From: Monocercomonoides exilis PA203
Lineage: Eukaryota; Protista; Preaxostyla
DNA length: 64,000 nt
Direction of reading: 5' to 3'
NCBI GenBank assembly: GCA_001643675.2
Contig: LSRY02000030.1
Coordinates: 1,054,001-1,118,000, forward strand
Below, piece by piece: positions 21,986-59,200 of the stretch (within the stretch, counting starts at the first letter, position 1; each line of letters opens with the position of its first letter). A program made the position numbers and the translations under genes. The notes under the pieces are model-generated. The model had not been told where the DNA came from. It did no database searches and saw only the letters and a program-made list of their open reading frames with translations.

Positions 21986-23178
21986 CAAGATATTGGCCTT
22001 TTCAAATAACGAACAAATAGAAAATCCTCAATGAATATAACTTTATGAGTAGTTATTAAATGAACGATTAATTTCTGATGAATGATCTGTACCTTAAATA
22101 ATTTTTCAAAATATGCTTTTTAAAAAAATTTCATTATTCTCGTTTTATTTTCTTTGATAACCACACATAAATAAACTTTCAAATTAGCCTGGGTGACGGA
22201 TTGAAAAATTGATGGTTTCGTCAGTCAGTAGTATTTTTTTCTCGTCAGTGGAAAGTTATAACTTAAGTCTTAATTTTGAAGATAACAAGACATAATGTTT
22301 ATTTCAATATATTATTTCAGCTGGCTTCAATAATTATTTATGAACTTTATCATTTTTCTTTTTTTGAAAAGATAATGAACTTTTATAATTAATCTTAATT
22401 TGAGAAATGATTTAATTTCAATTTCACATTCACTTTGAATGATAGTTGCTCGGTTTGCATTATGTTGTTTAACCTAATAAATGTGTGTGTTTTCTTACAG
22501 AGCAACAGGATGAAATTGAAGAAAATTAGTTCAAAGTGGAATATTCTTTTAATCAAGGATGAATATCGAATAAGGAAAGCGAATTCAAATAGAGACTTAG
22601 CGGGAAAAGAGATTTGGATGAAAAATTGATGAATCTATTGCATAAACTCAAAAAAAGAGACAATAAATTTTTGTTGAAAAAACCGTTGCATTTTAAACAA
22701 AGTGTTGATATTATTTTCAAAATATGTTTGTATTAGGTGGGTGATTATTTTTGAAAGCAATTATGATTACTTTGATTTATGAATACGCTGAGGAAACCAG
22801 AGATAATAATATTAAAAGAAGAAAAGTGTGAAAAGAAAATGAAAAATTAATGAAAGTTAATTTATTTCGAAAAAGCCTTTTTAGGCTTTAGCAATTAATT
22901 ATTTTTGAGGAAAAATGCTTTTTGTGAAAGAAGAGAATTGAAAGTGGAAGAGATGTTATATAAAAGGGATTAATATGTATTTCCAGTTTGAAGATGGTAA
23001 AAAGGATAAGTTCGAGTGAATTGTGTGATGGATTTGGGTTTCTCCCCAGCAGAACATAGAAGCAAAATACAAGAGCCAAAAGATAAGAATTTCTGTGAAT
23101 ATCTCAGTTGATATTTATTGGCTCCAGAGATATGTTTTATCAGCTAAAAATCCATCTTTATAAAGATCAATCAAAATT

Positions 23179-24606
23179 ATCGTTTTATGTATATCTGATG
23201 GTAGTAGTCATTTAGTGTAATAAGCTGGAATAGGTGATGATAATAAGATAGAGATCATGAGGTAATTGCTGATGCTCTTAGGGGTTTCTCATGATTAGAT
23301 ATTCAATGATGTTCTATAAAGATGGAGTTGTTGATAGGTGTAATCGATATGTATCTATAGCTGATATACCATATCTCCGGGAAGGAGAATTAGCTAAAAG
23401 ATCAACTGAAAGTGTTCGCAACGAAGTTGCTCAGGAGACTTTGTCTCCGTTCAAGTTGGTAAATTAATGGTGAAATTGTGTGAAAATTGATGTTATCGTT
23501 GATGAAATACATGTGTTGTATGTTGAACGTGTTATGTGTTGAACCTGTCGGTGTTATCGTTGGTGGAGGCGTCGAAGATGGTGAATTGGTGGTGAAAATT
23601 GATGAAATCGTAGGTGTTATCGTTGGTGTGATCGTTTGTGAAATCGCAAATAAAAATAATTGATTTTGTTTTTTTGTTTTATCGTAAATGGGTCGAAAGA
23701 AGATATACGCAACTGTGGAAGAAGCGAAAGAGGCTCAACAGAAACAAATTAAACAGTTTCAGGAAAAACGTAAAGAAGAAACAAAGTATTACAACGAACA
23801 TGTAACTGAGAAACAGAAGAAATTGATTAAGATAGTGAGGAGAAAGCTTATCGAAAGTGATGAGTTGTTAGATGAGTTGATGGAAAAAGTTAATGGGTAT
23901 TGCCTGTGCAGGCTTGATTGGGCAAAATGTGTTAATTGACGAAATATAACAGACTACACACGTTATTTGAATCGTAGATTAAATCAAACAGTAGTCACGA
24001 TGGCATTATAGTTGATTGCCAACATCTATATTTTTCGAACAAATGGCATTATGGTGGATTGCCACATTGATGTTTTTCACTTGACTTGGGGTTTATTTTG
24101 GTGTATTTAGCTTGAAAAAGTGTCAACCGGTAGTCAGGATACCGAATTGTGGCAATATCGAGATGCTTGGGGAAGGGAAATATTAACTATAATCTCCGTG
24201 CTGGAAGCGTAGTCAGGTAGTCAGGTAGTCAGGATCTTTTAAGTTCATCTGAAAAGAGCTGCCAACATGCCATTTCTGCCAACATGAGCAATTTACCTCT
24301 AATTTACCATGATTTTGAGGGTTTTTATTTATTTTCGACTGAATCATCATTCTGCCACATTGCCACATGGTATCGTTGGTGGCACATATTATTTATTCGT
24401 TGGTGGCACACACTTTTTGTATCGTTTGTTGTTCCAAACAGATGTTTTGCCTGCACAGGATAAGCTGGTCAGGTAATGTGAGCGATTCTGTGGCGTGGAA
24501 ATATTGAGTTAAATCTCCGTGCTTTTCACCTGCACAGGGTGCACAGGATAAATTAAATTCTCTAAAATATGTGGGCAAACGGGCAAACGGGGCAAATGGG
24601 CAAAAT
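23179..24606 (+). repeat. Left long terminal inverted repeat (1428 bp)
   Basis: Begins ATCGTTTTATGTATATCTGATGGTAGTAGTC; its reverse complement ends at 28471. Confidence 0.95.
23688..23939 (+). CDS. 83-aa basic/coiled-coil TIR-encoded protein, copy 1
   Basis: ATG start after a T-rich leader; MGRKKIYATVEEAKEAQQKQIK...; identical copy in the right TIR. Confidence 0.7.
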   Translation: MGRKKIYATVEEAKEAQQKQIKQFQEKRKEETKYYNEHVTEKQKKLIKIVRRKLIESDELLDELMEKVNGYCLCRLDWAKCVN

Positions 24607-24640
24607 GTGAAAAAATTAAACTGTAGCATTTCTGTGATTA

Positions 24641-26904
24641 TTAATAATCTTCATCCTCAGATACAGTTTGTTTGTACAACAGTTTTCATTCATCTTTCAA
24701 TATATAATGCCATGAACGTTTTACGTTTATAGATTTCTGTTTATGCTCACATTTATCTTTCAGTTGCAATTGGAAGTTTCTATCTTTAATTTCAACAGGT
24801 TTGCAGAGGGGAGCATCTGTACAATTCATTCCAACACATAGCTCATCGTAATGATTGCATATCCACATTTCCAACGGACTTTTTTCCTCGCTTCTATAAT
24901 ATCCATTTTAGCCTCTGTCATTGGTATTGATCTAACGTTAAATGATGAAAGATCTTTGTTCATCAAATATGTGAGCAAATTGTCATAAAACTTTGTCGTG
25001 AATGAAGAACATAGTTGTTTGAAATAATCGAAATTGTTCTTGTATTTACCATTGCATGCAAGAACAACATATCTCCTATCACCTGTTTCAATCTTTACTG
25101 GAAATGCGTGGTTTGTCACAAATATAAAATTAGCTACATTCTCGGCGGTTCTACGAGGTTGATTCTTCTCGTTTATCCTAATAATGTTTTCTGTTATTAC
25201 AGACTTCAACGCATTGAAATTTGCCAGTCTGTCGTCTCCACAATTTTTCAGTTCATTAAAAACAATCAACATTTTGCTTTCAACAACAGAGTTGAAGTTT
25301 CCAGTCAATTCTCCAATTTCTGTGACATTTCTGCTTGAATAACCAGCGAATAGTTCAGATATAACATCTGTGAATCTGTTTTTCCCAATACTTTGAATAC
25401 TTTTCAATATCAATGCTGTTTCATTTTTTATTCCAGGGTGTTGAACAATTTTGGCAATTCAGTTAATAACATATTCATATACATCGTTGTTGGAATCAGC
25501 AATTACCTCACGAACAAAGTCCAGAAACATTGAGATTGTGTCCATATCAACACTTTCACGAAAATTGTACTTGAAACCTTGAAATATCGAGAATACATTA
25601 GCTGTATCTTTTGCGTTAAACATAACACCCTGCCATGTTAGTTTCAACAAACAAGATAGTAGAATGTCATATGCTGTTGTTGTTTGATGTTCAGTTTTCC
25701 ACAGTTTAAGCATCTTTAAGTTACGTGTCATATTTGTTTCTGTAACAAATGTTATCCCCCAAAATTTATCGAATATATTGAAATCTTTTTGTATAAACAT
25801 CGACCCTGTTTCGATAAATCTAATAACTCTCGACAAATCACTAATAACATCATCAGCTTTTTTTTATTGTTTTGTCTTAGCTTTTCTTCGAATATCAGTC
25901 ATGGAAAATGAATCAGACATATCTAATGGTCTTTCAACATTGATATCGTTTCTCAGCAACGGTAATATCTCGTTTGTGTAATAGTCATTATTCCATATTT
26001 TGTACATCTTAACTAACACAAATGGCGATGATCTCAAACATCTGTATCGTTGTTTTGCTACATAATTGTTATCACGAGCGTTAGCTGTCAAATTGTCACT
26101 GTTTTGTACTCTGTCGAAAGCTAATTCGATATGCTCATTCGGTAATGAATTAATCGCTTGAAACAGTGCGAAAAACGTGACTTCTCTGTTGATTGGCATA
26201 TTTCCCCCATCGTTATGAATGACAAAACACTCCAACCCGTTGACAAAAACATTCGCTAATTCGTCACTGATGCTGTCATTGTCGTTATCTAATTTAACAA
26301 TATTATCTATTTCATCAGATGTTTTAATATACAGTTTCAAGGAGAGATCATTCAATATATCATTAACATTTCGTGTAATTGCTGAGTCAAATGAACCTCT
26401 AACAAGCTGATAAACATTTGTTTTTGATCGATGATCCTTACGCACTTTACTGTTTGGTAATACTATTAATGATCGTTTGCTCTCATCCAACGATGTCATG
26501 ATATCTACATCAAATTCATCGCAAGTGCAACATTTAATCATTTTGTTGGAGTTGGCGTAAAAGTCATCGGTATTTGCATAAATGTGAAATCCCCCAGAAG
26601 CTGTTTGAATAACAGCATCGTCTTCGTCAAGTTTGTTTAATATCTTTGATCTTATAGATTGTTTAGACTCGTCGTCTAACGATTTGTTAATGTCAATGTC
26701 GATAAAAGTTAAATTTGACACTTTGTTTACCAATACTGCTCTTCCTGTAACAACAGAGCCACTGCCTCCATCATTCTTTTGATAATTGTTAAAATAAACA
26801 ACGTTTGAATCAATTCTTTCATTCAATGTTTTTTCTTCCATGCTAATAAGCAGTTGTTCCGTTTGACTGTTTTTAACGATTGTTTCTGTAATGCTTTTGC
26901 TCAT
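24641..26904 (-). pseudogene. AEP primase-polymerase (Prim-Pol) fused to D5/NrS-1-like (DUF5906-type) SF3 helicase, ~750 codons, disrupted
   Basis: AEP motifs FIDIDI, QTASGGFHIY, DVDI and LIVLPNS; helical PriCT-like region. Helicase FSIFQGF...YVIN*IAKIVQHPG, Walker A LKSIQSIGKN, Walker B LIVFNEL, INEKNQP, FIFVTNH, GDRRY. ORFs 26904-25864, 25836-25459 and 25413-24826 share one frame, split by TAA (25866-64) and TGA (25461-59). Frameshift in an A-run near 24880 and another TGA at 24688-86. No introns. Confidence 0.85.
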
Positions 26905-27042
26905 GGTTGCTAATTTTATTCAAGTTAAAAAAACAAATTTTTTTTGAAACAGAATTATTTTTGAAACGAACATTTTGGGGAAAATGATGTTGAGGTTAAT
27001 GTCGAACTTTGACGGGGAACAGTTAATTTTCACAGAAAATGT

Positions 27043-28471
27043 ATTTTGCCCACTTTGCCCCGTTTGCCCGTTTGCCCACATATTTTAGAGAATTTAATTT
27101 ATCCTGTGCACCCTGTGCAGGTGAAAAGCACGGAGATTTAACTCAATATTTCCACGCCACAGAATCGCTCACATTACCTGACCAGCTTATCCTGTGCAGG
27201 CAAAACATCTGTTTGGAACAACAAACGATACAAAAAGTGTGTGCCACCAACGAATAAATAATATGTGCCACCAACGATACCATGTGGCAATGTGGCAGAA
27301 TGATGATTCAGTCGAAAATAAATAAAAACCCTCAAAATCATGGTAAATTAGAGGTAAATTGCTCATGTTGGCAGAAATGGCATGTTGGCAGCTCTTTTCA
27401 GATGAACTTAAAAGATCCTGACTACCTGACTACCTGACTACGCTTCCAGCACGGAGATTATAGTTAATATTTCCCTTCCCCAAGCATCTCGATATTGCCA
27501 CAATTCGGTATCCTGACTACCGGTTGACACTTTTTCAAGCTAAATACACCAAAATAAACCCCAAGTCAAGTGAAAAACATCAATGTGGCAATCCACCATA
27601 ATGCCATTTGTTCGAAAAATATAGATGTTGGCAATCAACTATAATGCCATCGTGACTACTGTTTGATTTAATCTACGATTCAAATAACGTGTGTAGTCTG
27701 TTATATTTCGTCAATTAACACATTTTGCCCAATCAAGCCTGCACAGGCAATACCCATTAACTTTTTCCATCAACTCATCTAACAACTCATCACTTTCGAT
27801 AAGCTTTCTCCTCACTATCTTAATCAATTTCTTCTGTTTCTCAGTTACATGTTCGTTGTAATACTTTGTTTCTTCTTTACGTTTTTCCTGAAACTGTTTA
27901 ATTTGTTTCTGTTGAGCCTCTTTCGCTTCTTCCACAGTTGCGTATATCTTCTTTCGACCCATTTACGATAAAACAAAAAAACAAAATCAATTATTTTTAT
28001 TTGCGATTTCACAAACGATCACACCAACGATAACACCTACGATTTCATCAATTTTCACCACCAATTCACCATCTTCGACGCCTCCACCAACGATAACACC
28101 GACAGGTTCAACACATAACACGTTCAACATACAACACATGTATTTCATCAACGATAACATCAATTTTCACACAATTTCACCATTAATTTACCAACTTGAA
28201 CGGAGACAAAGTCTCCTGAGCAACTTCGTTGCGAACACTTTCAGTTGATCTTTTAGCTAATTCTCCTTCCCGGAGATATGGTATATCAGCTATAGATACA
28301 TATCGATTACACCTATCAACAACTCCATCTTTATAGAACATCATTGAATATCTAATCATGAGAAACCCCTAAGAGCATCAGCAATTACCTCATGATCTCT
28401 ATCTTATTATCATCACCTATTCCAGCTTATTACACTAAATGACTACTACCATCAGATATACATAAAACGAT
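27043..28471 (-). repeat. Right long terminal inverted repeat (1429 bp)
   Basis: Mirror of 23179-24606; the TIR ORF translations are identical. Confidence 0.95.
27711..27962 (-). CDS. 83-aa basic/coiled-coil TIR-encoded protein, copy 2
   Basis: Translation identical to 23688-23939. Confidence 0.7.
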   Translation of the reverse strand: MGRKKIYATVEEAKEAQQKQIKQFQEKRKEETKYYNEHVTEKQKKLIKIVRRKLIESDELLDELMEKVNGYCLCRLDWAKCVN

Positions 28472-28598
28472 CTCTATCATATTTTAATTGCCTATCCAAC
28501 TTATTATTGAAGATGATAAAACCCATCAGATATTCATAAATAGATAATATTGATTGACCTCATAAAGATGGATCCATAACGGGTATACCATATCTCTG

Positions 28599-29452: not shown

Positions 29453-29689
29453 GTGAAAAGAGTTATTGATTCGAATTTTGTATCATTTTCATCATTTTTT
29501 TTAACTTTTTTCATTTCTAAAATTATTGGTGCCAATAAAGAAAAAAGAACCAATAAAAAGATGACCCTATCAACAAAGTTTCCAAAAAATACGTCAACGA
29601 ATAGAAATAGAAAAAAAAGGAAAAGAAAAAAAGATAGAAAGAAAAAAGAAAAGAAAGCTAACTTGAAGCTGATCAAATTGAATTTTCAG

Positions 29690-31200: not shown

Positions 31201-32853
31201 ATAAAACAGTGATCATTTTTTGACAGACGTGAAATGACACAAAACATTTTGTTATTATATCAATGATGCCTGTTAACTAGATATGTAAATCAAATTTTTT
31301 TTGAATTCTGAGAAAGTGAAATAAAGTTATGTGTGAAGCAATTTTTCAATGACTAGTGCAAAAAAAGCTTGAAAGTCCGTATTTTCCCCCATATTCTTTT
31401 TCTATTACTTTCTTTCTTTCTTTCTTTCTTCCTATCTTTTTCCACCTTATTCTCTATGCTTCATTGGAAATCCTCTTGCATTATCATTTCTTATTTAAGT
31501 TCACAATCATGCCATTCCAAGATTAAGATTGCAGCACCACTTACACTGTTACCAAAAGCGATATCGTTGGACCAAAATGTTTTTTGATTCATTGAATCGC
31601 ATCCAATATTGTCTGAGAAAAGATCCTCTTGGAAATATCATCAGCACTCGAAGAAGCTTCTGTCAACAGAAGCGGAGAAAGTTCAACAAAAGAGGGCATT
31701 GTTTAAAAGGTATGCATTGAACAACAATGTTTCATTCTTTTGTGAAGAACAGCGAAGCATAACAACAAAAATATTAATTGATCTGTTTAAATGGTTGATG
31801 CTTGATCTGTAATAAAAGTTCACAAAAATGATTGAAGTACCTTCAATGAAAGCAATACGGTCATTCTCGTATAACTCTTATTGAAGTCCTTATTCACTGA
31901 CAAAGCATTCTAATATTCAATTGCAAGTCCCAATTAAGATTAAGTCGATGATAAAGATTGCAAGTCAACTTCACTTCTTTTTTGTCTGTGAACCGAATTG
32001 GAGCAGACAACAGCTTTTGAAAAGGGAGATCATGAAGTTTGAAAAAATAAAAGGAAAAAAGCTAAGAGCGAAGAGAGAAGGGAACATTGCTGAAGTTCTT
32101 TGACTTTTGTTGCTTTTCACAAAAATGTCTTCGCAAACATAGGTGACTCTAAAGCAATTCAAACGCAATAATCACATTTCCATCATGCAATGAAAGGATA
32201 GTGAGCTGCAAAAGTCTGATGTTTCAATGAAATGAAAATAAGATGCAATAGAGATATATTGAAAACAGATTTGTGGAAATGAGAAAAAGAAATGTTGAAG
32301 AAGAAAAGGAAGATGATAATTGAAACAGTTATGATGACAGCAGTGTATTTTGTTTGAGCAGACATGAGATGTTTCAAATGACAGCAAAACGAAAAGATCA
32401 ATTACAGAAACAGAGAATGCTGTGATTGTCGCTTTCGACCCATTATGGTGATACAAGAAAAATAAGTTTTCATTTCATCTCGTTTCACGTTTCTTTGCAT
32501 CTTTATTAGAGCACAGGCAATTGTGCTAAATATTTTGATAGATCATTTCCCACTAATTATTCATGCTTGCACTTAAACTTAATTTCCAAACTTTTTGAAT
32601 CTTTTTTGTGATATTCAATAGAATTAATAAGTTTCTAAATTGAGGATTTAATATTTTCTTCTTTTTGAGAAGGAATGAAGTTTTTGATCTTTTGTGGGAA
32701 ATGATCAAAACTTATAAAAGTTTAATAACATTTGAACAAAGAATAATTCGGACGAAAAAAGTGGATATTCATGTTAAACTTATCAAACACAATGAAAATA
32801 GGCAATTAAAATATTTTTTTATATGTCGAACATAAAAAGCTTGAAAGACCATA

Positions 32854-33250
32854 CAGTTTGTGCAAAAAATACCGGACATCGCAAAAAATACCGGACAAGA
32901 TCGATATCTCAATTACCGCAAGAGGAATAATTCTGACAATTTTCCTCAAAATATATCTCATCAATGCAAACTCATTTGATATACCAAACTTTCAAAACTT
33001 CCTTATTTGTGATCGGAGAAAATTATTTTGAAAATCTTGGAGAAACTCAAAATTTTATTTCTCCTTGATTTCAATGATTAATTTTTTCTGAACACAAATG
33101 AAGCTATTTTGAAAGTCGTGTATTTCAAATGAGTTTGCATTGATGAGATATATTTTGAGGAAAATTATCAGTATTTTTCTTCTTGCGGTTATTGTGATAT
33201 TGATCTTGTCCGGTATTTTCTGCGATGTCCGGTATTTTTTGCACAAACTG
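32854..33250. mobile_element. Tc1/mariner-type MITE family A (397 bp, long imperfect TIRs, TA TSD)
   Basis: TA|CAGTTTGTGCAAAAAATACCGGACATCGC ... GCGATGTCCGGTATTTTTTGCACAAACTG|TA; arms are complementary over ~130 bp. Confidence 0.85.
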
Positions 33251-33492
33251 TATTTTCCCCCAAATTAATAAAATAACGAAAGTCAATTTCGTTTTCCGGT
33301 CGTTATCTGCCCACTTGCCCATTAAATCTGTTTCTTATCAGAAGATTTTGATTTTTATATGTTTATTAATAATGAATATTTTTTTCACATAAAATAACAA
33401 ATTATGAACATTTCAAAAATATTTGTATTTTGCAAATTCAACAATGCATATAACTCATTTTCTGAAAAAAAAAATAATATACGATTTTGATA

Positions 33493-34538
33493 CACCAAAA
33501 ATAATTCTAATTCGAAAAATAATAATAATACATTTTCCATAAAAAATAATTCATTTACGAAAATTTATATTTCTATTTCGTAATTTATTAATACGATTTC
33601 TTAAAAGAATAAATCAATGTCAAAAATAAAATTTTTTCAATTTTAAAAAATTCGTTCCTTTTTATTGAAAATTTTATAATTGAAGTCAATTAAAAAAGAA
33701 AATGAATTCATTTTCATATAAAAATTGATGTTTTTCAATTTTTTTACCAAAGAAATTTCAAAAAATAATTGGTGAAAAAATTCTTTTTTTTGTTATTCAA
33801 TAAAATGTGATTGAAATTTAAATATTTTTATTTTGATATTCAATTGAATGAATATTTTTGAAATTTCTATCATTTCAGTGATGATTTTCGAAAATGAAAA
33901 AAATCAAAAAATTGATTTGATTCATATTTATGTTAAAAAATATGTTATTTGAGTAATAATATTTGATTGGTTAAATAAAAACTTGAAATTTTCTGAAATC
34001 CATTCACGAGATAAATTAGAATTTTCATTTATAAAAAAATTTCGAAATTGAAATTTTATTTTTCGAAAACGAATTATAGTAACTTTCATAATAGGCGGAC
34101 ACTTTCCTAATGGCCGGACAGCAGCCTTTTCTCAGCAGCTTATGAACGTAGAATTTTGATTTTTTTCCACATCAATCGTAAGGTGAATATGAATATATGA
34201 AGCATTCTGAGAATACTTCATTCTTGTGTGTTCATTTTTTTAAAATTTATTTTGTTTTTCGGAGAAACACGGTGTTATTAGTTTATCCGAATTTCTCATA
34301 AAAAAACAAAATTAATTTTAAAAAAATGAACACACAAGAATGAAGTATTCTCAGAATGCTTCATATATTCATATTCACCTTACGATTGATGTGGAAAAAA
34401 ATCAAAATTCTACGTTCATAAGCTGCTGAGAAAAGGCTGCTGTCCGGCCATTAGGAAAGTGTCCGCCTATTATGAAAGTTACTATAATTCGTTTTCGAAA
34501 ATGAATAATATTTTTCCGTATTTGAATCATTTTTGATG
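33493..34538. mobile_element. AT-rich fold-back MITE family B copy (inverted relative to 49139-50179) hosting a nested insertion
   Basis: TA|CACCAAAAATAATTC start and degenerate GAATCATTTTTGATG|TA end. Internal blocks match the reverse complement of 49320-49390, 49710-49745 and 49870-49920. Confidence 0.7.
34070..34491. mobile_element. 422-bp palindromic MITE with ~190-bp near-perfect TIRs and a 10-bp TSD (MULE-like)
   Basis: CGAATTATAGTAACTTTCATAATAGGCGGACAC... mirrored at the right end; flanked on both sides by TTTTCGAAAA (34060-69, 34492-501). Confidence 0.85.
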
Positions 34539-35360: not shown

Positions 35361-37184
35361 TCAACCTTTCATCCAAAGTGGCGGTTCAGTCTCAACAATA
35401 TGTTTCCATAGATCTGACATTGTCATTCCACTCTTGTCTTCAAGTGAATTGTAGTGTCTCATCCATTCTGGTGGCTCTGTCTTGACTTCCCTTATCCAAT
35501 GCATGGCCATTGTCCTTCCGTTCCTGTCAGAAAGCGCAATTCTATGCCTCATCCATTCTGGTGGTTCTGTTTTGACACTTTCAATCCAGATCATAGCCAT
35601 TGTGGGCCCATTCTTATCAGTAAGTGAAGCATCATGTCTCATCCATTCTGGTGGTTCTGTTTTGACACTTGCAATCCAGAACATAGCCATTGTGAGCCCA
35701 TTCTTATTGCCAAATGTTATATCGTGTCTCATCCACTCTGGTGGCTCTGTCTTCACATAGTAAATCCAATGCATAGCCATCGTTGACCCTTTTTTGTTGC
35801 AGAGTGTAATGTAGTGCCTCATCCATTCTGATGGCTCTTTTTTCGCAAATCTTATCAAATGCATAGCCATTGTACATCCATGCTTATCTTCTTTCGCATT
35901 TTCATGTCTCATCCATTCTGGAGGTTCTGTTTTTACAGATTGAATCCAATGCATCGCCAACGTGAATCCTTCTTTATCACCAAGCGTAATGTTATGTCTG
36001 ATCCGTTCTGGCGGTTCTGTCTTTGCATGTCTTATCCAATGCATTGCCATTGTTTGTCCATTCTTATCAGAAAATGAACTTCCATGTCTCATCCACTCGG
36101 GTGGCTCTTTTCCGACGTGAATAATCCATATCATAGCCATTGTCCACCCATCCATGTCTATAAACGTCGTGTCATGCCTCATCCAGACTGGTGGCTCCAT
36201 TTTTGCCTCCATAATCCACAGCATCGCCATTGTCTCCCCGCTGCTATCGCGAAGTGCAATGTCGTGTCTCATCCATGATGGTGGCTCTGTATTCACATTT
36301 TTGATCCACAGCATTGCCATTGTTCGTCCAAACTTATCGGCAAGCGTGTTGTTGTGTCTCATCCATTCTGGCGGTTCTGTCTTGTTCTCAATAATCCACC
36401 TCATCCCCGCCGTCTGTCCATTTTCATCTTTCAATATTTCATCAAATTTCATCCATTTCGGTAATTCAGTTTTAACAAATATTCTCCAATAATCTGCCAT
36501 TGTCCATCTGTACGTATCTTTCAATGAATTGCAATGCCTTATCCATTCCGGTGGCTCTGTCTCTATATTCTCTATCCACAACATTGCCATTGTTCTGCCG
36601 TAGTTATCAGAAAGTGTAATATCGTGTCTCATCCACTTGGGAGGTTCTGTCTTGACATGTGAAATCCATATCATTGCCATTGTTCTCCCTTCCTTATCAG
36701 TAAGCGAAGCATCATGTCTCATCCATTCTGGTGGCTCTGTCTCTATATTCTCTATCCACAACATTGCCATTGTTCTCCCTTCCTTATCAGTAAGCGAAGC
36801 ATCATGTCTCATCCATTCTGGTGGCTCTGTCTCTATATTCTCTATCCACAACATTGCCATTGTACATCCTTTATAATTGGTAAGAGTTATATCGTGTCTC
36901 ATCCACTCTGGTGGCTCTTTTTTTGCAAATCTTATCAAATGCATAGCCATTGTATATCCATGCTTATCTTCTTGCGCATTTTCATGTCTCATCCATTCTG
37001 GAGGTTCTGTTTTGACATATGCAATCCAGAACATAGCCATTGTCCATCCTGTGCTATCAGCAAGAGTAATATCATGTCTTATTTTCTCAGGTGGTTCAGT
37101 ATGATTCTCCATAATCCATCGCATCGCTCTTGTGTGTTGACGTTTATTATCCTGTGGCTTTATCGCCTCCGAGTTATTGCCCAT
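35361..37184 (-). CDS. Intronless 607-aa protein of ~19 tandem 31-aa Trp/Met-rich repeats (ankyrin-like spacing)
   Basis: Repeat consensus DKxGxTMAMxWIxxxKTEPPEWMRHDxxLx; 93-bp DNA period; intact ORF; N-terminal MGNNS. Confidence 0.85.
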   Translation of the reverse strand: MGNNSEAIKPQDNKRQHTRAMRWIMENHTEPPEKIRHDITLADSTGWTMAMFWIAYVKTEPPEWMRHENAQEDKHGYTMAMHLIRFAKKEPPEWMRHDITLTNYKGCTMAMLWIENIETEPPEWMRHDASLTDKEGRTMAMLWIENIETEPPEWMRHDASLTDKEGRTMAMIWISHVKTEPPKWMRHDITLSDNYGRTMAMLWIENIETEPPEWIRHCNSLKDTYRWTMADYWRIFVKTELPKWMKFDEILKDENGQTAGMRWIIENKTEPPEWMRHNNTLADKFGRTMAMLWIKNVNTEPPSWMRHDIALRDSSGETMAMLWIMEAKMEPPVWMRHDTTFIDMDGWTMAMIWIIHVGKEPPEWMRHGSSFSDKNGQTMAMHWIRHAKTEPPERIRHNITLGDKEGFTLAMHWIQSVKTEPPEWMRHENAKEDKHGCTMAMHLIRFAKKEPSEWMRHYITLCNKKGSTMAMHWIYYVKTEPPEWMRHDITFGNKNGLTMAMFWIASVKTEPPEWMRHDASLTDKNGPTMAMIWIESVKTEPPEWMRHRIALSDRNGRTMAMHWIREVKTEPPEWMRHYNSLEDKSGMTMSDLWKHIVETEPPLWMKG

Positions 37185-40100
37185 GTTGCTTGGTTTTTTA
37201 AGTTTGATCCGAAATATAATAAAACAAAAAAATTATGGAATGAAAAACTTGATCATTCTTTAATGCAAATTTTCTGATATTAAAAGTTGAAATGAGAATT
37301 ATTATATCAGAGAAAAAATACATATGTTTGTCCCAATATTGCAATTGCATTGTTTTTCTTCTCACAAAAAATATTCAAAATTCAGCAAACGAAGGTTTTC
37401 TTTGGGTATATTGCTCTTTTTTTATTGTTTGTGTTTGTCCATGATTATTAAAAGGCCATCTATTTGAATGCTTCAAACTTTCTAAATATTCTGCTTTTTC
37501 CCGATTTTTTGTGATTTAAACAGAACTTGATTATAACCGAGCTTCACAAGACTATAATGGTTGTCGAACACTCATTTGTCATTTCAATAATCCCCATAAG
37601 CAGTTGAGAAAGGGGTTTTTGCTTTTTATTGCATTCTGAACGTGGTTTATTCATTTCCATTTCGAAAATGTTTTGATCCAAAGATAAATGCAATCACTTG
37701 TGATAACACGAGTTATTATGAATGCTTTGATGTCTTGAAGAGAGTTTGTTAAAGCCTTTTGTGATGGAAATGAGTATGTTGACAAAAAAGAGAAGAAGAA
37801 CAGTCTGGTCTTTATTAATTTTTCTATATATGAATATTAACATGTTGAATGTTTTTGTGTTGTTTTCAGGGCAGGAGGTGGAAATGAATGAAAATGAACT
37901 AAAGCGGGACATCTCGTTATGCAGGCTGACCATCGAGTTGGGAGAGCGAATTCATATGGAAAGTGCCCAGGGTGAAGGGATTGAAAGGGAATTGGAGATG
38001 ATCTTTTCAGACGCAAAAACAGGACATTTTTCAATGATGAGAATGGAATCTGGGCAGAAAACATGAATTTCACATTTTTCAGAAGGACCAGAAATCGATG
38101 CACTTGATGGAGAAACAACTGATGGAAAGGATGGTTGGCAAATCAGATGATGAAACACTTGAAAAAGGAAGGAATAATGAATTTTTATTGGAGGGAAACA
38201 GGCGCCGACAGAATAAAAAACAGAAAATTGCTTGTAAAAATGTTTGGAAGGTTTGCTGCTGTTGTTATTTTTTTTTTTTTTGAAGTGATTATTTTAATTC
38301 AGAATGCTGAAAGAGAGAAGGATTAGATGGCTTTGAAGAAGAAGAAAGGCGAGGAAGGAAGAATAAAGACGGACAGATGAAATGCGAGATATTTCGAAGA
38401 TGCTTGGCATTGGGCTTTTGCAAAGAATTATTTTTGACGAAAGAAGATTTTTTGTGAAAGAGGGGAAGTTAAAGAAGAAAAGATGGAATGAAAAAGAGAT
38501 TGACGCGTGCTTTGTATTTATTGTTAGAAAGAGAGAAAGAGGATTGAGCTGAAAGCGAAAAAGATTCAGAGGTTACATCTCTGCAGAAGAAAAAGAAACA
38601 GAAGAAGAGAATTTCAATGAATTTCTCCGTTGGCATAAATTGACACTCATCTTCTCAATATTCAACAATTAATCGTTTTATTCAATCCATTCATCATCAT
38701 CATCTTCTTCTTCATCAAATATATAAACATCATATCAATCAATTTCTGCTTCTTCTTTTTTTCTCTTTCTCTTCCCCACCCTCTTCATCTGCCTAATCCT
38801 TCTCTTTCATTCTATTCATTTTTCATTCTCCGTCTTCTCTCAACCAGCAGATCCTTCTTTGTTTCTTCTTCATTAGCTCTTCAATACTCTTCTTTTTCTC
38901 CTCTTTCCTCTTCTTTCCATTTCCATTTCGCCACTCAACTCTTTTCCCCTTCTTCTGTTCTATTCATCATCTTTATCCAACAGGCATTTACTCATTAAAC
39001 ACATCACATGTTCTTTCTTATTCTTCTCATTCTCATTTTCTTCATCATCAACATCAACATCAACATCCTAATCAACATCATAACATCAAAACCTCCCTCA
39101 AACCTTCTTCTTTCTCTTCTGTCATTCTTTCTCTGTCAACGCCTTCCATCTCCACCTCTTCCTTATCATTTTCCCTTTCTCCGCTTTCTGCTTCTTTCCC
39201 TTCTCTCTCTTCTCTCTCACACATCCCTTCTCTCCCTCATTCTTTTTTCACTCAACAGCTTCTTTCTCATTCAATTTCACCTGAATTTCCTCCTCCTCCT
39301 CCGCCTCTTTTTGACGAAAACAATGAATTTTCAAGCATTCACACAAGAAAACTTCAATTGAGACAGAACAGACTGAGATGGGGGCAGAGAAACAAACAGA
39401 TGCCGAACAAAGAGCAGAGGATGCTGGCTATTTTCACTGGAATGTATGAGAATGGGAATGATGGGAAAGATGGAAAAGGAAAAAAAGGAAATGTTGTGAG
39501 AGGAATGATAGGAATAACAGCGATGAGGGAGAGAGAGAAGGAGAAATGGAAAGAAGAACTGAAAGAGAGAGAAAAAGGAAAAGGAAAAGAGAAAGAGAAA
39601 CGAGAGAAATTTCCTGGTTTAAGCTGTTGGATGATTGGGTGGAGCTTCTTGATGCAGACGAGGCAGTCGATGAATGTGGAGTCAACGCATTGACACCCGA
39701 AAACTACTCATCTTCCCACACAATCAACACATTTGATTTTCCTGGCTATGCAACCAATCTTATTGACGACTTTCTCTTTGAGCAATTACTGAACAATGGC
39801 GATGACATTCTGCGAAGAAGATTCGGTTCGCTTGCAAACAGCCTCATTTCGAGCAGAGAATTGTCTGCTTTTCAGTCAGATGCGATCAGAAGGGAATTTG
39901 TGGCTGGAGCTGTTAGAGAGGGCTTTGGAGATCCATTGTGGCTGTGTGAAAGAGGAGTTTCCGTTCAGAAGCTAGTGAGATTGGCTCGGGCGTGTTGTTC
40001 GCTGAATACAAAAGCAGCGTTTGTTGAGGCAATGGCGAATCTGCAGAGATTTGTGAGTAATACAAACATATTTGAGAACCTTTCTGTTTGTAAATCCGAA

Positions 40101-49138: not shown

Positions 49139-50179
49139 CACCAAAAATAATTCAATTTCGATAATTAATAATTCAATTTCGGAATTAATAATTCAAAATC
49201 GAAAAAAAATAATTCAATTTCGGAATCAATAATTCAAAATCGAAAATTAATAATTCGATTTCGAAAAAGAATAATTCAATTTCGAAAATGATTATTTCAA
49301 TTTCGTAATTCATTAAAAACTGAAATTTTTAATTTTTCTCGAGAATAAATTTCAGAAAAGTTCAAGTTATTTTTTAAACCAATCAAATTTTATTACTCTA
49401 TGAAAACTGTTTTTAAAAAATGAAACAATCAATAAATCAATTTGGGTGATTCTTTTTGAAATCATAACTTTTTTCGGAGTATTGATTTTTCTAGTGTTGT
49501 TTGTCATTGAAAAATGATTTTGTTTTAAAATGGAACGTTTGACACAACTGTTTTAATAATTGAAGTTGAAGCACAAACAAAGATGATGATGCCATTTGTT
49601 AGTGTTTTCACTTCTCTGAGCTTTTTTGTTAATATTTGGTTAAAATTTTTAAACAGAAATTTTTGAATGAAAAATTTTAATTTCAAAAATAATCACCCAT
49701 TTTTAAATTTTTTTTTTCATTTTCGAAAATCATCACTCAAATGATAATAATTTTATAAAAATTCATTCTATTTATTAACTAAATAAAAATAGAAAAAATT
49801 TAATCACGATTATTGAATTATTTCTTTCAATAATGTGATAGTCACATTGGTAAAATTTTGAAGAATATCTGTTTTAAACATGAAAATGAATTTATTTCCT
49901 TTTCAAATTAACTTCAATCAATAAATCTTCATTCAAAATGAAAGAAAATTTTTTAATGAAAATGCAACATTTTTCAATTATTGATAACCAAAATTTGCTG
50001 ATGAGATAAAAATTTAAAGAATTTAAAACCCCAGACACAAGTTATTCATTCCACAAATCAAAAAAATTTCCGTTTCGAATTTGAAATATTTTTTTTCGAA
50101 ATTGAATTATTAATTCCGAAATTGTATTATTAATTTTCGAAATTGAATTATTTTTTTCGAATTAGAATTATTTTTGGTG
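49139..50179. mobile_element. Fold-back MITE family B (1041 bp), TA TSD, subterminal ~20-bp tandem repeats
   Basis: TA|CACCAAAAATAATTC ... GAATTATTTTTGGTG|TA, with arrays of AATAATTCAATTTCG at both ends in inverted orientation. Confidence 0.85.
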
Positions 50180-50315
50180 TAATGATCACAAAAAAAAAAA
50201 AAAAAAAAAAACTACCCACATTAACTTATTGTGAAAGTGCTATTCTATTGTTTGTTTGTTTATAAATAGAATTAAGAATTAGGAATGAGTTCGTTTTTTT
50301 GTATTTATCAATATA

Positions 50316-50677
50316 CAGATATCGCAGAAAATACCGGACAAGATCGATATCTCAATTACCGCAAGAGGAATAATTCTGACAATTTTCCTTAAAATATAGC
50401 TCATCAATACAAACTCACACGTCATACAAGACTTTCATGACTTCTTCGTTTATACTCAGAAAATAATAATAATTATTATTATCTCGGAGAAATAGGATTT
50501 TGAGTATCTCCGAAATTTTAATAATAATTTTCTCTGAGCACAAATGAAGCTATTTTGAAAGTTTTGTATATTAAATGAGTTTGCATTGATAAGATATATT
50601 TTGAGGAAAATTGTCAGAATTTTTCCTCTTGCGGTAATAGAGAAATCAATATTGTCCGGTAATTTGTGCGATATCTG
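50316..50677. mobile_element. MITE family A copy
   Basis: TA|CAGATATCGCAGAAAATACCGGACAAGATCG ... TGCGATATCTG|TA; shares internal sequence with 32854-33250. Confidence 0.85.
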
Positions 50678-50717
50678 TATCATTCATTAAAAAAACCACT
50701 TCAAAAATAATCTCTTA

Positions 50718-57837: not shown

Positions 57838-58140
57838 AGGGAGTGTGCAAAAAATATCGGATAAGATCGATTTCTTAATAACTGCAAGAGAGATTATTCT
57901 GATAATTTTCCTCTGAACATATCTCATTGTTACAAACTCATTTGTTATTCAATAGTGTCATTTCCACTTTATTTGTTCATCCAAGATTTCAGTTACAATT
58001 TATTCCATGAACACAAAATGCTATTTCTCTGAGATTCCAACAATTATTAAAATTTTTGAATTGACAAGAGCATGAAAGTCTGGCATGTCAAATGAGTTTG
58101 CAAAGTGAAGATACACAGATATCGCAAAAAATGCAGGACA
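57838..58140. mobile_element. Degenerate MITE family A copy
   Basis: GTGCAAAAAATATCGGATAAGATCGAT...ATATCTCATTG...AAACTCATTTG matches family A. Confidence 0.55.
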
Positions 58141-58640
58141 TGTGTCATTATTTTTGAAATCAAATGTCTTTATTTTTTTGTGAAATTCCTTTTGTTTGAT
58201 TTTCTAATAGAACAAAAATTTCATATTTCAATCAAATTTCTTCTCCCACTCACGAAACTTCACTATAATGAAAGCAATATCTTGATAATGCTATCATTAC
58301 CATTTTTGTGAAATTTCGTGAATGAAAACAAAAATATGATCGAAATGTGAAAATTTCATTCTATTCGAAAATTAAACAAAAGGAACTTTTCAAAAAAATT
58401 TGGACATATCTATTTTCGGGAATTGATTTTTCAAAGATTGTTTGCCTTTGGGAAGAGATTTTGCAGACAAGTGTTTTTATTATCACAACTGTTTTATTGT
58501 CAAATGTTATTTCCGAATCAAAGATAAAAATGTCTTCTATAAGTCTTTTCTCTTTTCAATATTCAAAGGTTAATATTCAAGAGGAATTTTTGAACTGAAA
58601 ATTTTGAATGAAAAAATATTCTTTCAAAAATAATCACCCA

Positions 58641-58975
58641 CATCGCAAATAATATTATTCAAAATCGATTTCACAATAACTGCTAGAAAAATAATTTTGA
58701 CAATTTTCCCCAAAATATATCTCATCAATACAAGCTCATTTGAAATATTATACTTTCAAAACTTCCTTATTTGTGCTCGGAGAAAATTATTTTGAAAATC
58801 TTGGAGAAACTCAAAATCCTATTTCCCCGTAATTTTTATCATTGATTTTTTCTGAGCACAAATGAAGCTATTTTAAAAAACTTGTTTATCAATTGAGTTA
58901 ATATTGATGAGATATATTTTGAGGAAAATTGTCAGAATTATTCCTCTTGTTGTTATTGTGAAATTGATCTCATCA
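58641..58975. mobile_element. Degenerate MITE family A copy
   Basis: GACAATTTTCCCCAAAATATATCTCATCAAT ... ATTGATGAGATATATTTTGAGGAAAATTGTC inverted arms. Confidence 0.7.
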
Positions 58976-59200
58976 TGTTTTTCTTTTTTCACAATCAATA
59001 AATCAAGTGGTTTTATTATCAACATAAGTGGAAATTATTTTTCATCAATTCTTATTGGTTATTGAAAGATTTTTTGTATTTAACTTTTTCACGCTGTATT
59101 TGTCGATGAACAAATGATAAAAAAACAATACAAACAATTATCCTTGCTGTTTCCAATTTTTTTGATAGGATTTCTATAAAAAATTAAAAAATAAAATAAA

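Follow-up and report, generated by a model that had tools for sequence, protein, structure and literature searches.

The stretch of DNA analysed here, referred to as the window, is 64,000 nucleotides (nt) of contig LSRY02000030.1 from Monocercomonoides exilis PA203 (assembly GCA_001643675.2, positions 1,054,001 to 1,118,000 of the forward strand). It contains a compact element in which two long inverted repeats surround one gene, a primase-polymerase (PrimPol) of the archaeo-eukaryotic primase (AEP) type fused to a helicase. An original prediction, made from the letters alone, placed the unit at 23179-28471. The arms were placed correctly, but the element appears to extend to about 23126 and 28597. 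The features are listed below, with protein lengths in amino acids (aa) and ORF for open reading frame.

23126..28597, no strand: whole element, ends placed by inference; 5472 nt; ends 5'-AGAGATATG...CATATCTCT-3'; without target-site duplication
23126..23178, + strand: left outer end; 41/53 identical to the right outer end; imperfect terminal palindrome; without the extra ~75-nt unit
23179..24606, + strand: near-perfect inverted repeat, left arm; belongs to a high-copy repeat family
23688..23939, + strand: 83-aa basic, helical ORF, copy 1, in the left arm
24641..26904, - strand: pseudogene, AEP PrimPol fused to an NrS-1/D5-like helicase, ~750 codons
27043..28471, - strand: right arm of the near-perfect inverted repeat
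27711..27962, - strand: 83-aa ORF, copy 2, in the right arm, identical to copy 1
28472..28597, - strand: right outer end; diverged tandem copy of the arm's last ~75 nt (58/78) and a terminal fold-back segment
28598..29570, + strand: flank outside the element; decayed pogo-like DDE_1 transposon, 3' half only (residue ~222 of 519 onwards)

The arms are 1429 nt long and 99.93% identical, with a single 1-nt indel between them. The second-longest inverted pairs of the window have arms of just 200-211 nt. The mirrored 1.43-kilobase (kb) terminal inverted repeats (TIRs) that had been predicted are thus real, and so is the duplicated small ORF. A single homologue of the 83-aa ORF was found, MONOS_17995 of M. 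exilis (90% identity). The ORF has no match to a curated family, and its Atlas matches all scored under 0.9.

Besides the central gene and the 83-aa ORFs, the ORF inventory holds no ORF of useful size within the unit. The unit had been said to lack an integrase, transposase, protein-primed DNA polymerase B (pPolB), capsid, packaging ATPase and HUH Rep, and this holds; a DDE remnant abuts it and lies outside. There is no ORF or room in the unit for a pPolB, and the polymerase of the related locus L004 (described below) has no tblastn match in the window. No rve integrase was found in the unit by ORF inventory and Pfam scan, the only DDE match being the outside pogo remnant. There is likewise no ORF in the unit for an A32 ATPase, a protease or a capsid protein, and the ATPases of loci L001 and L004 are unmatched in the window.

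The central gene has two domains, as had been predicted, and both fold model and profile matches agree. The model of the N-terminal part (residues 1-346) has a predicted local distance difference test score (pLDDT) of 84.7. It matches the Prim-Pol of plasmid pRN1 (Foldseek E 1e-5; VIA Z 9.5, root-mean-square deviation 3.6, 147 aligned) and that of phage NrS-1 (VIA Z 7.7). These two account for all 10 Foldseek rows with E <=0.001. D69/D71 and D134 are invariant in 22/22 homologues, and H107 is present in 21/22. An HUH endonuclease is not supported in this domain, since the fold is that of an AEP Prim-Pol and Rep domains appear only at E >0.03. The C-terminal part matches DUF5906 (Pfam, E 5e-20), and a profile built from 23 sequences matches the NrS-1 helicase 6K9C (E 2e-26). 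The model of a Trichomonas vaginalis homologue matches NrS-1, African swine fever virus PrimPol and phage PrimPol-helicases. The DxD, H and D motifs and the P-loop helicase of an AEP Prim-Pol-helicase fusion are therefore all recognizable, with a Walker A motif that is degenerate in the window copy.

Judged from its sequence, this gene is dead, with three nonsense codons, a frameshift and the loss of Walker A. A TAA at aa 347 (25866-25864) stands in a column that is Tyr/His in 22/22 aligned homologues. A TGA at aa 482 (25461-25459) falls on Trp in the 21/21 homologues that have a residue there. The third stop, a TGA at 24688-24686, stands in a mostly Cys column (alignment read by eye). The original prediction gave the span of the gene correctly and spoke of a stop-corrected protein, but there is also a frameshift near 24885, and both Walker A glycines are replaced by Ser (25401, 25392). 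The helicase is broken and, because of this, the window copy cannot self-prime and unwind. The window protein departs from 19 of 194 conserved columns, and 16 of the 22 other rows depart at 1-8. The remaining six rows are the most divergent or truncated (P0059 8, P0047 15, P0063 16, P0064 27, P0072 32, P0074 62). The stop sites are not among the read differences listed, so any one stop may be an assembly error. False stops have occurred in published assemblies of endogenous mavirus-like elements (EMALEs), according to the available part of PMC8547959. An alternative genetic code was rejected because no single recoding accounts for stops on Tyr/His, Trp and mostly Cys columns; the gene itself terminates with TAA TAA.

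The homologue search returned 76 proteins among 7991 scored candidates, mostly 45-57% identical, the named ones from Trichomonas, Histomonas and Monocercomonoides. The T. vaginalis proteins P0004 (57%, cluster of 198 members) and P0071 (53%, cluster of 350 members) are named 'Prim-pol domain family' or 'phage plasmid primase P4 family'. The Histomonas homologue (55%) is named 'Poxvirus D5 protein'. Two named M. exilis homologues are 82% and 43% identical and are truncated, at 386 and 599 aa. The predicted anaerobic-protist host is in agreement with the matches, as the closest named homologues are M. exilis proteins, 82-90% identical. An oxymonad host is likely from the single homologue of the small ORF and from the DDE matches described below, which are all from M. 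exilis. A FastTree tree of 76 rows was made from 72 of the 76 matches (four short ones were dropped), the window protein, L001, L003 and L004. It does not order events, and it groups the window protein with two M. exilis proteins (99) within a 69-row clade (99) that includes L004, L001 and T. vaginalis.

Five scans of sequence collections with the window protein gave four loci, L001 to L004, of which L001 and L002 are nearly the same sequence and were counted as one independent locus. The L004 gene is 51% identical over residues 19-658, and its contig ends inside the primase gene. It adjoins a DUF4108 gene (E 6e-6) and a gene for an A32-like ATPase (E 0.002), together with one for a protein of 837 aa that has PolB-like motifs and whose Atlas neighbours are DNA_pol_B_2 (0.92). 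L001/L002 carry a helicase-only relative (49%) flanked by an A32 ATPase (E 2e-6) and an HNH gene. L003 is distant (27%) and is the one match that the primase-helicase as a query gave in three viral-contig scans. No close relative was found in the viral contigs scanned, and the L004 ATPase as a query found no match in them. A relative at 60% identity or 80% coverage is absent from the 72,556 plasmid records. The two independent close loci for which context is available are both Maverick-like, and neither (0/2) has the compact layout. As a separate observation, L004 (1-9384) is titled as a Bacilli metagenome-assembled genome from sheep colon; it looks like a parabasalid-type Maverick fragment and is likely a binning contaminant.

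Class-3 T. vaginalis Mavericks (TvMav3) provide the nearest described comparison. The accessible text of PMC12289875 reports a primase-domain gene in 91.8% of 1705 such elements, with DUF4108 in 58.8%, HNH in 24% and 'Poxvirus D5 protein' in 8.6%. It gives the gene order as primase, gene 7, DUF4108, and TIRs of 100-900 base pairs (bp) depending on class. Another survey counted 2716 Maverick primase-domain ORFs (PMC7845603). TvMav3 elements are bounded by TIRs and carry a primase-domain/D5 gene, as the window unit does. The relatives of the window gene adjoin DUF4108, A32 ATPase, HNH and pPolB-like genes, like the TvMav3 gene sets. In contrast, TvMav3 elements are 15-26 kb long with 10-14 genes, 100-130-bp TIRs and poly(A/T) tips (PMC12289875, accessible text), whereas the window unit is 5.5 kb with 1.43-kb arms that hold an inner ORF, and is without polymerase, integrase, ATPase or capsid genes. 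The window element has the long TIRs of a Maverick. It falls short of what defines an autonomous one and is not classed as such; it looks like a derivative.

The reading preferred here, with a probability of about 0.58, is a multicopy, non-autonomous, internally deleted derivative of a metamonad Maverick/Polinton, with arms homogenised after the gene had decayed. Such a shrunken, dead derivative is likely because the primase-helicase relatives adjoin Maverick-type genes. The context of L004 and L001/L002 suggests that the retained gene is a Maverick gene. The 5.5-kb element would likely have needed full-size helpers in order to move. The virus-like origin in the original prediction is retained. 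Its view that Polintons do not fit is not supported, since close relatives adjoin Maverick-type genes and a primase is present in most TvMav3. The proposed new class of replicon is weakened and likewise not supported, with both independent close loci being Maverick-like. Homologues found only inside larger elements had been named as the outcome that would speak against the prediction. This outcome is seen in part, as both close loci are of Maverick type. The loci are, however, short and not numerous, and the gene/arm junction described below recurs in at least one other copy of the same organism.

Several points weigh against this reading. The parentage is suggested by the context of the relatives and not by a full-length Maverick bearing these arms. 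The gene context is known from just two independent close loci, few and short. In L004, the 837-aa polymerase-like protein has no Pfam, PHROG or PDB sequence match, and the A32 and DUF4108 scores are slightly below curated cut-offs. That P0004 corresponds to the annotated Maverick primase is suggested by names, copy number and L004 synteny. The TIRs of TvMav3 elements measure 100-130 bp, as against 1.4-1.55 kb in the window element. No target-site duplication was found at 23126/28597 (5-8 bp, <=1 mismatch, within 4 nt of either end). Finally, diverged copies that share the junction, together with Walker A glycines in other copies, may mean that the compact form was once a functional family.

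These other copies were observed in four DNA runs of the organism (X1-X4), which come from one sample, possibly the source of the assembly, and are not independent; no RNA run was listed for the stretch. Summed contig depth over the gene, a rough figure that gives no copy number, is ~330-780 against ~40 in the flanks (X1), roughly ten times the flank. The gene copies are diverged, with ~8-10% differences in most of the listed pieces (28/297, 20/204, 16/214; one piece 5/203), and Gly is kept at both Walker A positions (25401, 25392). Diverged contigs span the point where the gene's 3' end meets the arm, at 24559-24742 (X1, X2), 24538-24742 (X3) and 24489-24719 (X4). At least one other copy, and probably two, share this junction.

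A satellite family could explain these copies. It would be a minimal linear replicon that used a PrimPol-helicase taken from a Maverick for its own replication and depended on Mavericks or another virus for integration and packaging only, with the window copy as a dead member. This is possible but doubtful. Its replication could be primed from the terminal fold-backs, as an imperfect hairpin is found at each end, and besides the multicopy gene, the shared junction and the glycines, the oxymonad proteins form their own clade (99). A full Maverick with the primase as its last gene would show the shared junction too, and the recurrence of this junction covers the gene's 3' side and not its 5' side. 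All close relatives with context sit in larger elements, both named M. exilis homologues are truncated, and the plasmid and viral-contig scans gave no close relative. The satellite reading keeps some weight because the compact junction recurs and other copies retain the ATPase motif. It is only tentatively conceivable that oxymonads harbor a family of ~5.5-kb satellites, reduced to hairpin-tipped 1.5-kb TIRs and the PrimPol-helicase, whose copying needs no protein-primed polymerase and which exploit the integrase and capsids of Mavericks.

The arms are far more abundant than the gene, with a depth of up to 22,000 at the 83-aa ORF against ~400 just inside the gene (X1). In other copies the arms contain numerous internal deletions and rearrangements. 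Both observations speak for the arms being an independent high-copy foldback transposon family, moved by some transposase, that had captured a Maverick primase-helicase as cargo; other foldback repeats are also present in the window. This explanation is unlikely. The element's end motif is similar to Maverick ends, the gene is present in several diverged copies of which at least one has the same junction, and no transposase is linked to the arms, the adjoining pogo having an unrelated end.

The near identity of the arms could also be an artefact of assembly or polishing. The common sample of the four runs and the false stops in EMALE assemblies leave some room for this, and no zero-difference contig bridges the right junction among those listed. 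The left junction, in contrast, is spanned by zero-difference contigs in X3 (22651-23236) and X4 (22677-23236). Arm letters that look private to the window have near twice the flank depth in the four runs (24036: 2.1/1.9/2.3/1.9; 24427: 1.7/2.1/2.3/1.8). Over 19 gene and 28 arm places, which are part of the rows listed, have differing likeness limits and in the arm include third alleles, the window's own letters in the gene, non-zero in 32 of 76 values, have a median depth 1.2 times that of the flank, and values below 1.5 times flank make up 8% of the 102 non-zero arm values (of 112), against 72% of the 32 in the gene. These depths agree with the presence of two identical arms and with the gene having no near-identical sibling; an artefact is very improbable. 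Arm-variant contigs in X2 have a depth near 200 against ~100 for the flanks, among rows selected for high support, hinting that other copies also have paired identical arms.

The ends of the element are likely at 23126 and 28597. These positions were placed by inference because contigs of other copies track the terminal motif as far as 23377, beyond which they are heterogeneous (8 contigs, agreement 0.52), and because the pogo match on the right flank starts at 28595-28598. The left palindrome may be ~30 nt longer than placed. Homology between the ends runs past the perfect arms in diverged form (23126-23178 against 28546-28597, 41/53 identical). Each of these outer ends folds back on 23322-23378, giving an imperfect hairpin of ~250-330 nt at each end (fold z -5.4 and -2.6, with -5.4 for the left end). 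Other copies also seem to have the extra ~75-nt tandem unit that the right end carries, as similar letters stand ahead of 23179 in 3 of their contigs. The ends, AGAGAT//ATCTCT, have 5/6 letters of (AG)3//(CT)3; vertebrate Mavericks end in (AG)3//(CT)3 or (AGT)2//(ACT)2 (PMC8097293, accessible part). An AAV-like (adeno-associated virus) T-shaped hairpin at 23413-23449 was rejected as a feature of the family, as it is skipped in 3-4 contigs per run. A target-site duplication at 23179/28471 was also rejected, with 4-nt chance words only.

The left and right flanks do not match and appear to be derived from different sites. The pogo-like DDE_1 flank is a high-copy sequence, 86% identical to M. exilis proteins, with a loose end of contigs at 29570, and all 33 DDE matches are from M. 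exilis. The 5' half of the pogo was not found in the window by tblastn with 8 of the 33 DDE homologues; the left flank as its other half, or as an inverted copy, was rejected for want of support in the same search. The left flank also contains a dispersed repeat (22863-22971, 75% like 38390-38501).

A possible history of the element as a Maverick derivative can be outlined. The parent would have replicated as linear DNA by pPolB, aided by the PrimPol-helicase, and would have integrated by its own rve integrase at AG..CT ends. Deletion of the interior of a long-TIR Maverick may then have left just its ends and the primase-helicase gene. This mini form would have been copied and integrated in trans by a helper polymerase and integrase. 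The arms are 99.93% alike around a gene with four disabling lesions that is ~10% different from its siblings, so they would have been equalised late, when the gene had already undergone most of its decay. The most likely route is gene conversion between the arms within the chromosome, because conversion in place fits the absence of a close gene sibling; alternatively, the arms may have been equalised by panhandle copying during a late round driven by a helper. A deletion, or a recombination or crossover at the tandem terminal unit, may then have replaced the left tip and flank. This would account for the shorter left tip, the 77% identity of the outer ends, the missing duplication and the half pogo.

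Truncated EMALEs of Cafeteria are alike, being short TIR-flanked derivatives of larger integrating DNA viruses, with TIRs of up to 2.3 kb. In the available part of PMC8547959, 3 of 33 complete EMALEs are truncated yet TIR-flanked, the smallest complete one is 5.5 kb, TIRs are 0.2-2.3 kb, and the parent carries a primase/helicase gene at one end, a further likeness. EMALEs differ in that they belong to the virophage lineage and are single elements rather than a demonstrated multicopy family. The NrS-1 and pRN1 PrimPol-helicases have the same two folds as the window protein; they differ in being from prokaryotic replicons, with <20% identity in the structural matches. Transpovirons are small, TIR-bounded linear elements without a capsid that have an SF1 helicase and are associated with giant viruses, on which they rely. 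The window unit, by comparison, is chromosomal and decayed, and its PrimPol is fused to a DUF5906/NrS-1-like helicase and not to one of the SF1 type.

As a dead mini-Maverick, the element would extend the primase-bearing Maverick gene family from parabasalids to oxymonads. It would also put a name on part of a large unclassified repeat fraction, which amounts to 35% of the M. exilis assembly according to the accessible text of PMC8767320. The long arms, kept identical on either side of a decayed gene, are a candidate example of palindrome gene conversion in a protist. Intact compact copies, if there are any, would provide a one-gene system for testing whether replication of a eukaryotic linear element is possible with a PrimPol-helicase alone, and whether Polintons have satellites of their own. 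Were the satellite reading true, the element would parasitise Polintons in the manner of a transpoviron and would be the smallest eukaryotic DNA element that synthesises itself. A compact element of this kind in oxymonads is not described in the titles and abstracts searched, a coverage that excludes subscription journals and Repbase. The survey by Bellas counts 6 for M. exilis and 820 for Streblomastix in a column taken to be capsid-gene hits, the column head not being visible in the available part of the source (PMC10120064); the low count for M. exilis speaks for the satellite reading. Other sources, available in part, served as background only (PMC6431247, PMC3671162, PMC3014272, 10.1101/2024.03.23.586382, 10.1101/2023.08.22.554363).

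There are a number of other repeats in the window. A ~400-nt foldback family resembling miniature inverted-repeat transposable elements is present at 32851-33253, 50313-50680, 58628-58985 and 57847-57976. Its arms are 135-175 nt long and 76-89% complementary, two of the copies start with ATACAG and end with CTGTAT, and the family is unrelated to the arms of the element by blastn. A perfect 200-nt inverted repeat with a 42-nt spacer lies in very AT-rich DNA at 34060-34501. A foldback-like element at 49142-50172 has inverted arrays of 20-21-nt subterminal repeats ~0.8 kb apart. A 607-aa ORF on the - strand at 35361-37184 contains a 90-nt (30-aa) tandem repeat array of ~20 units.

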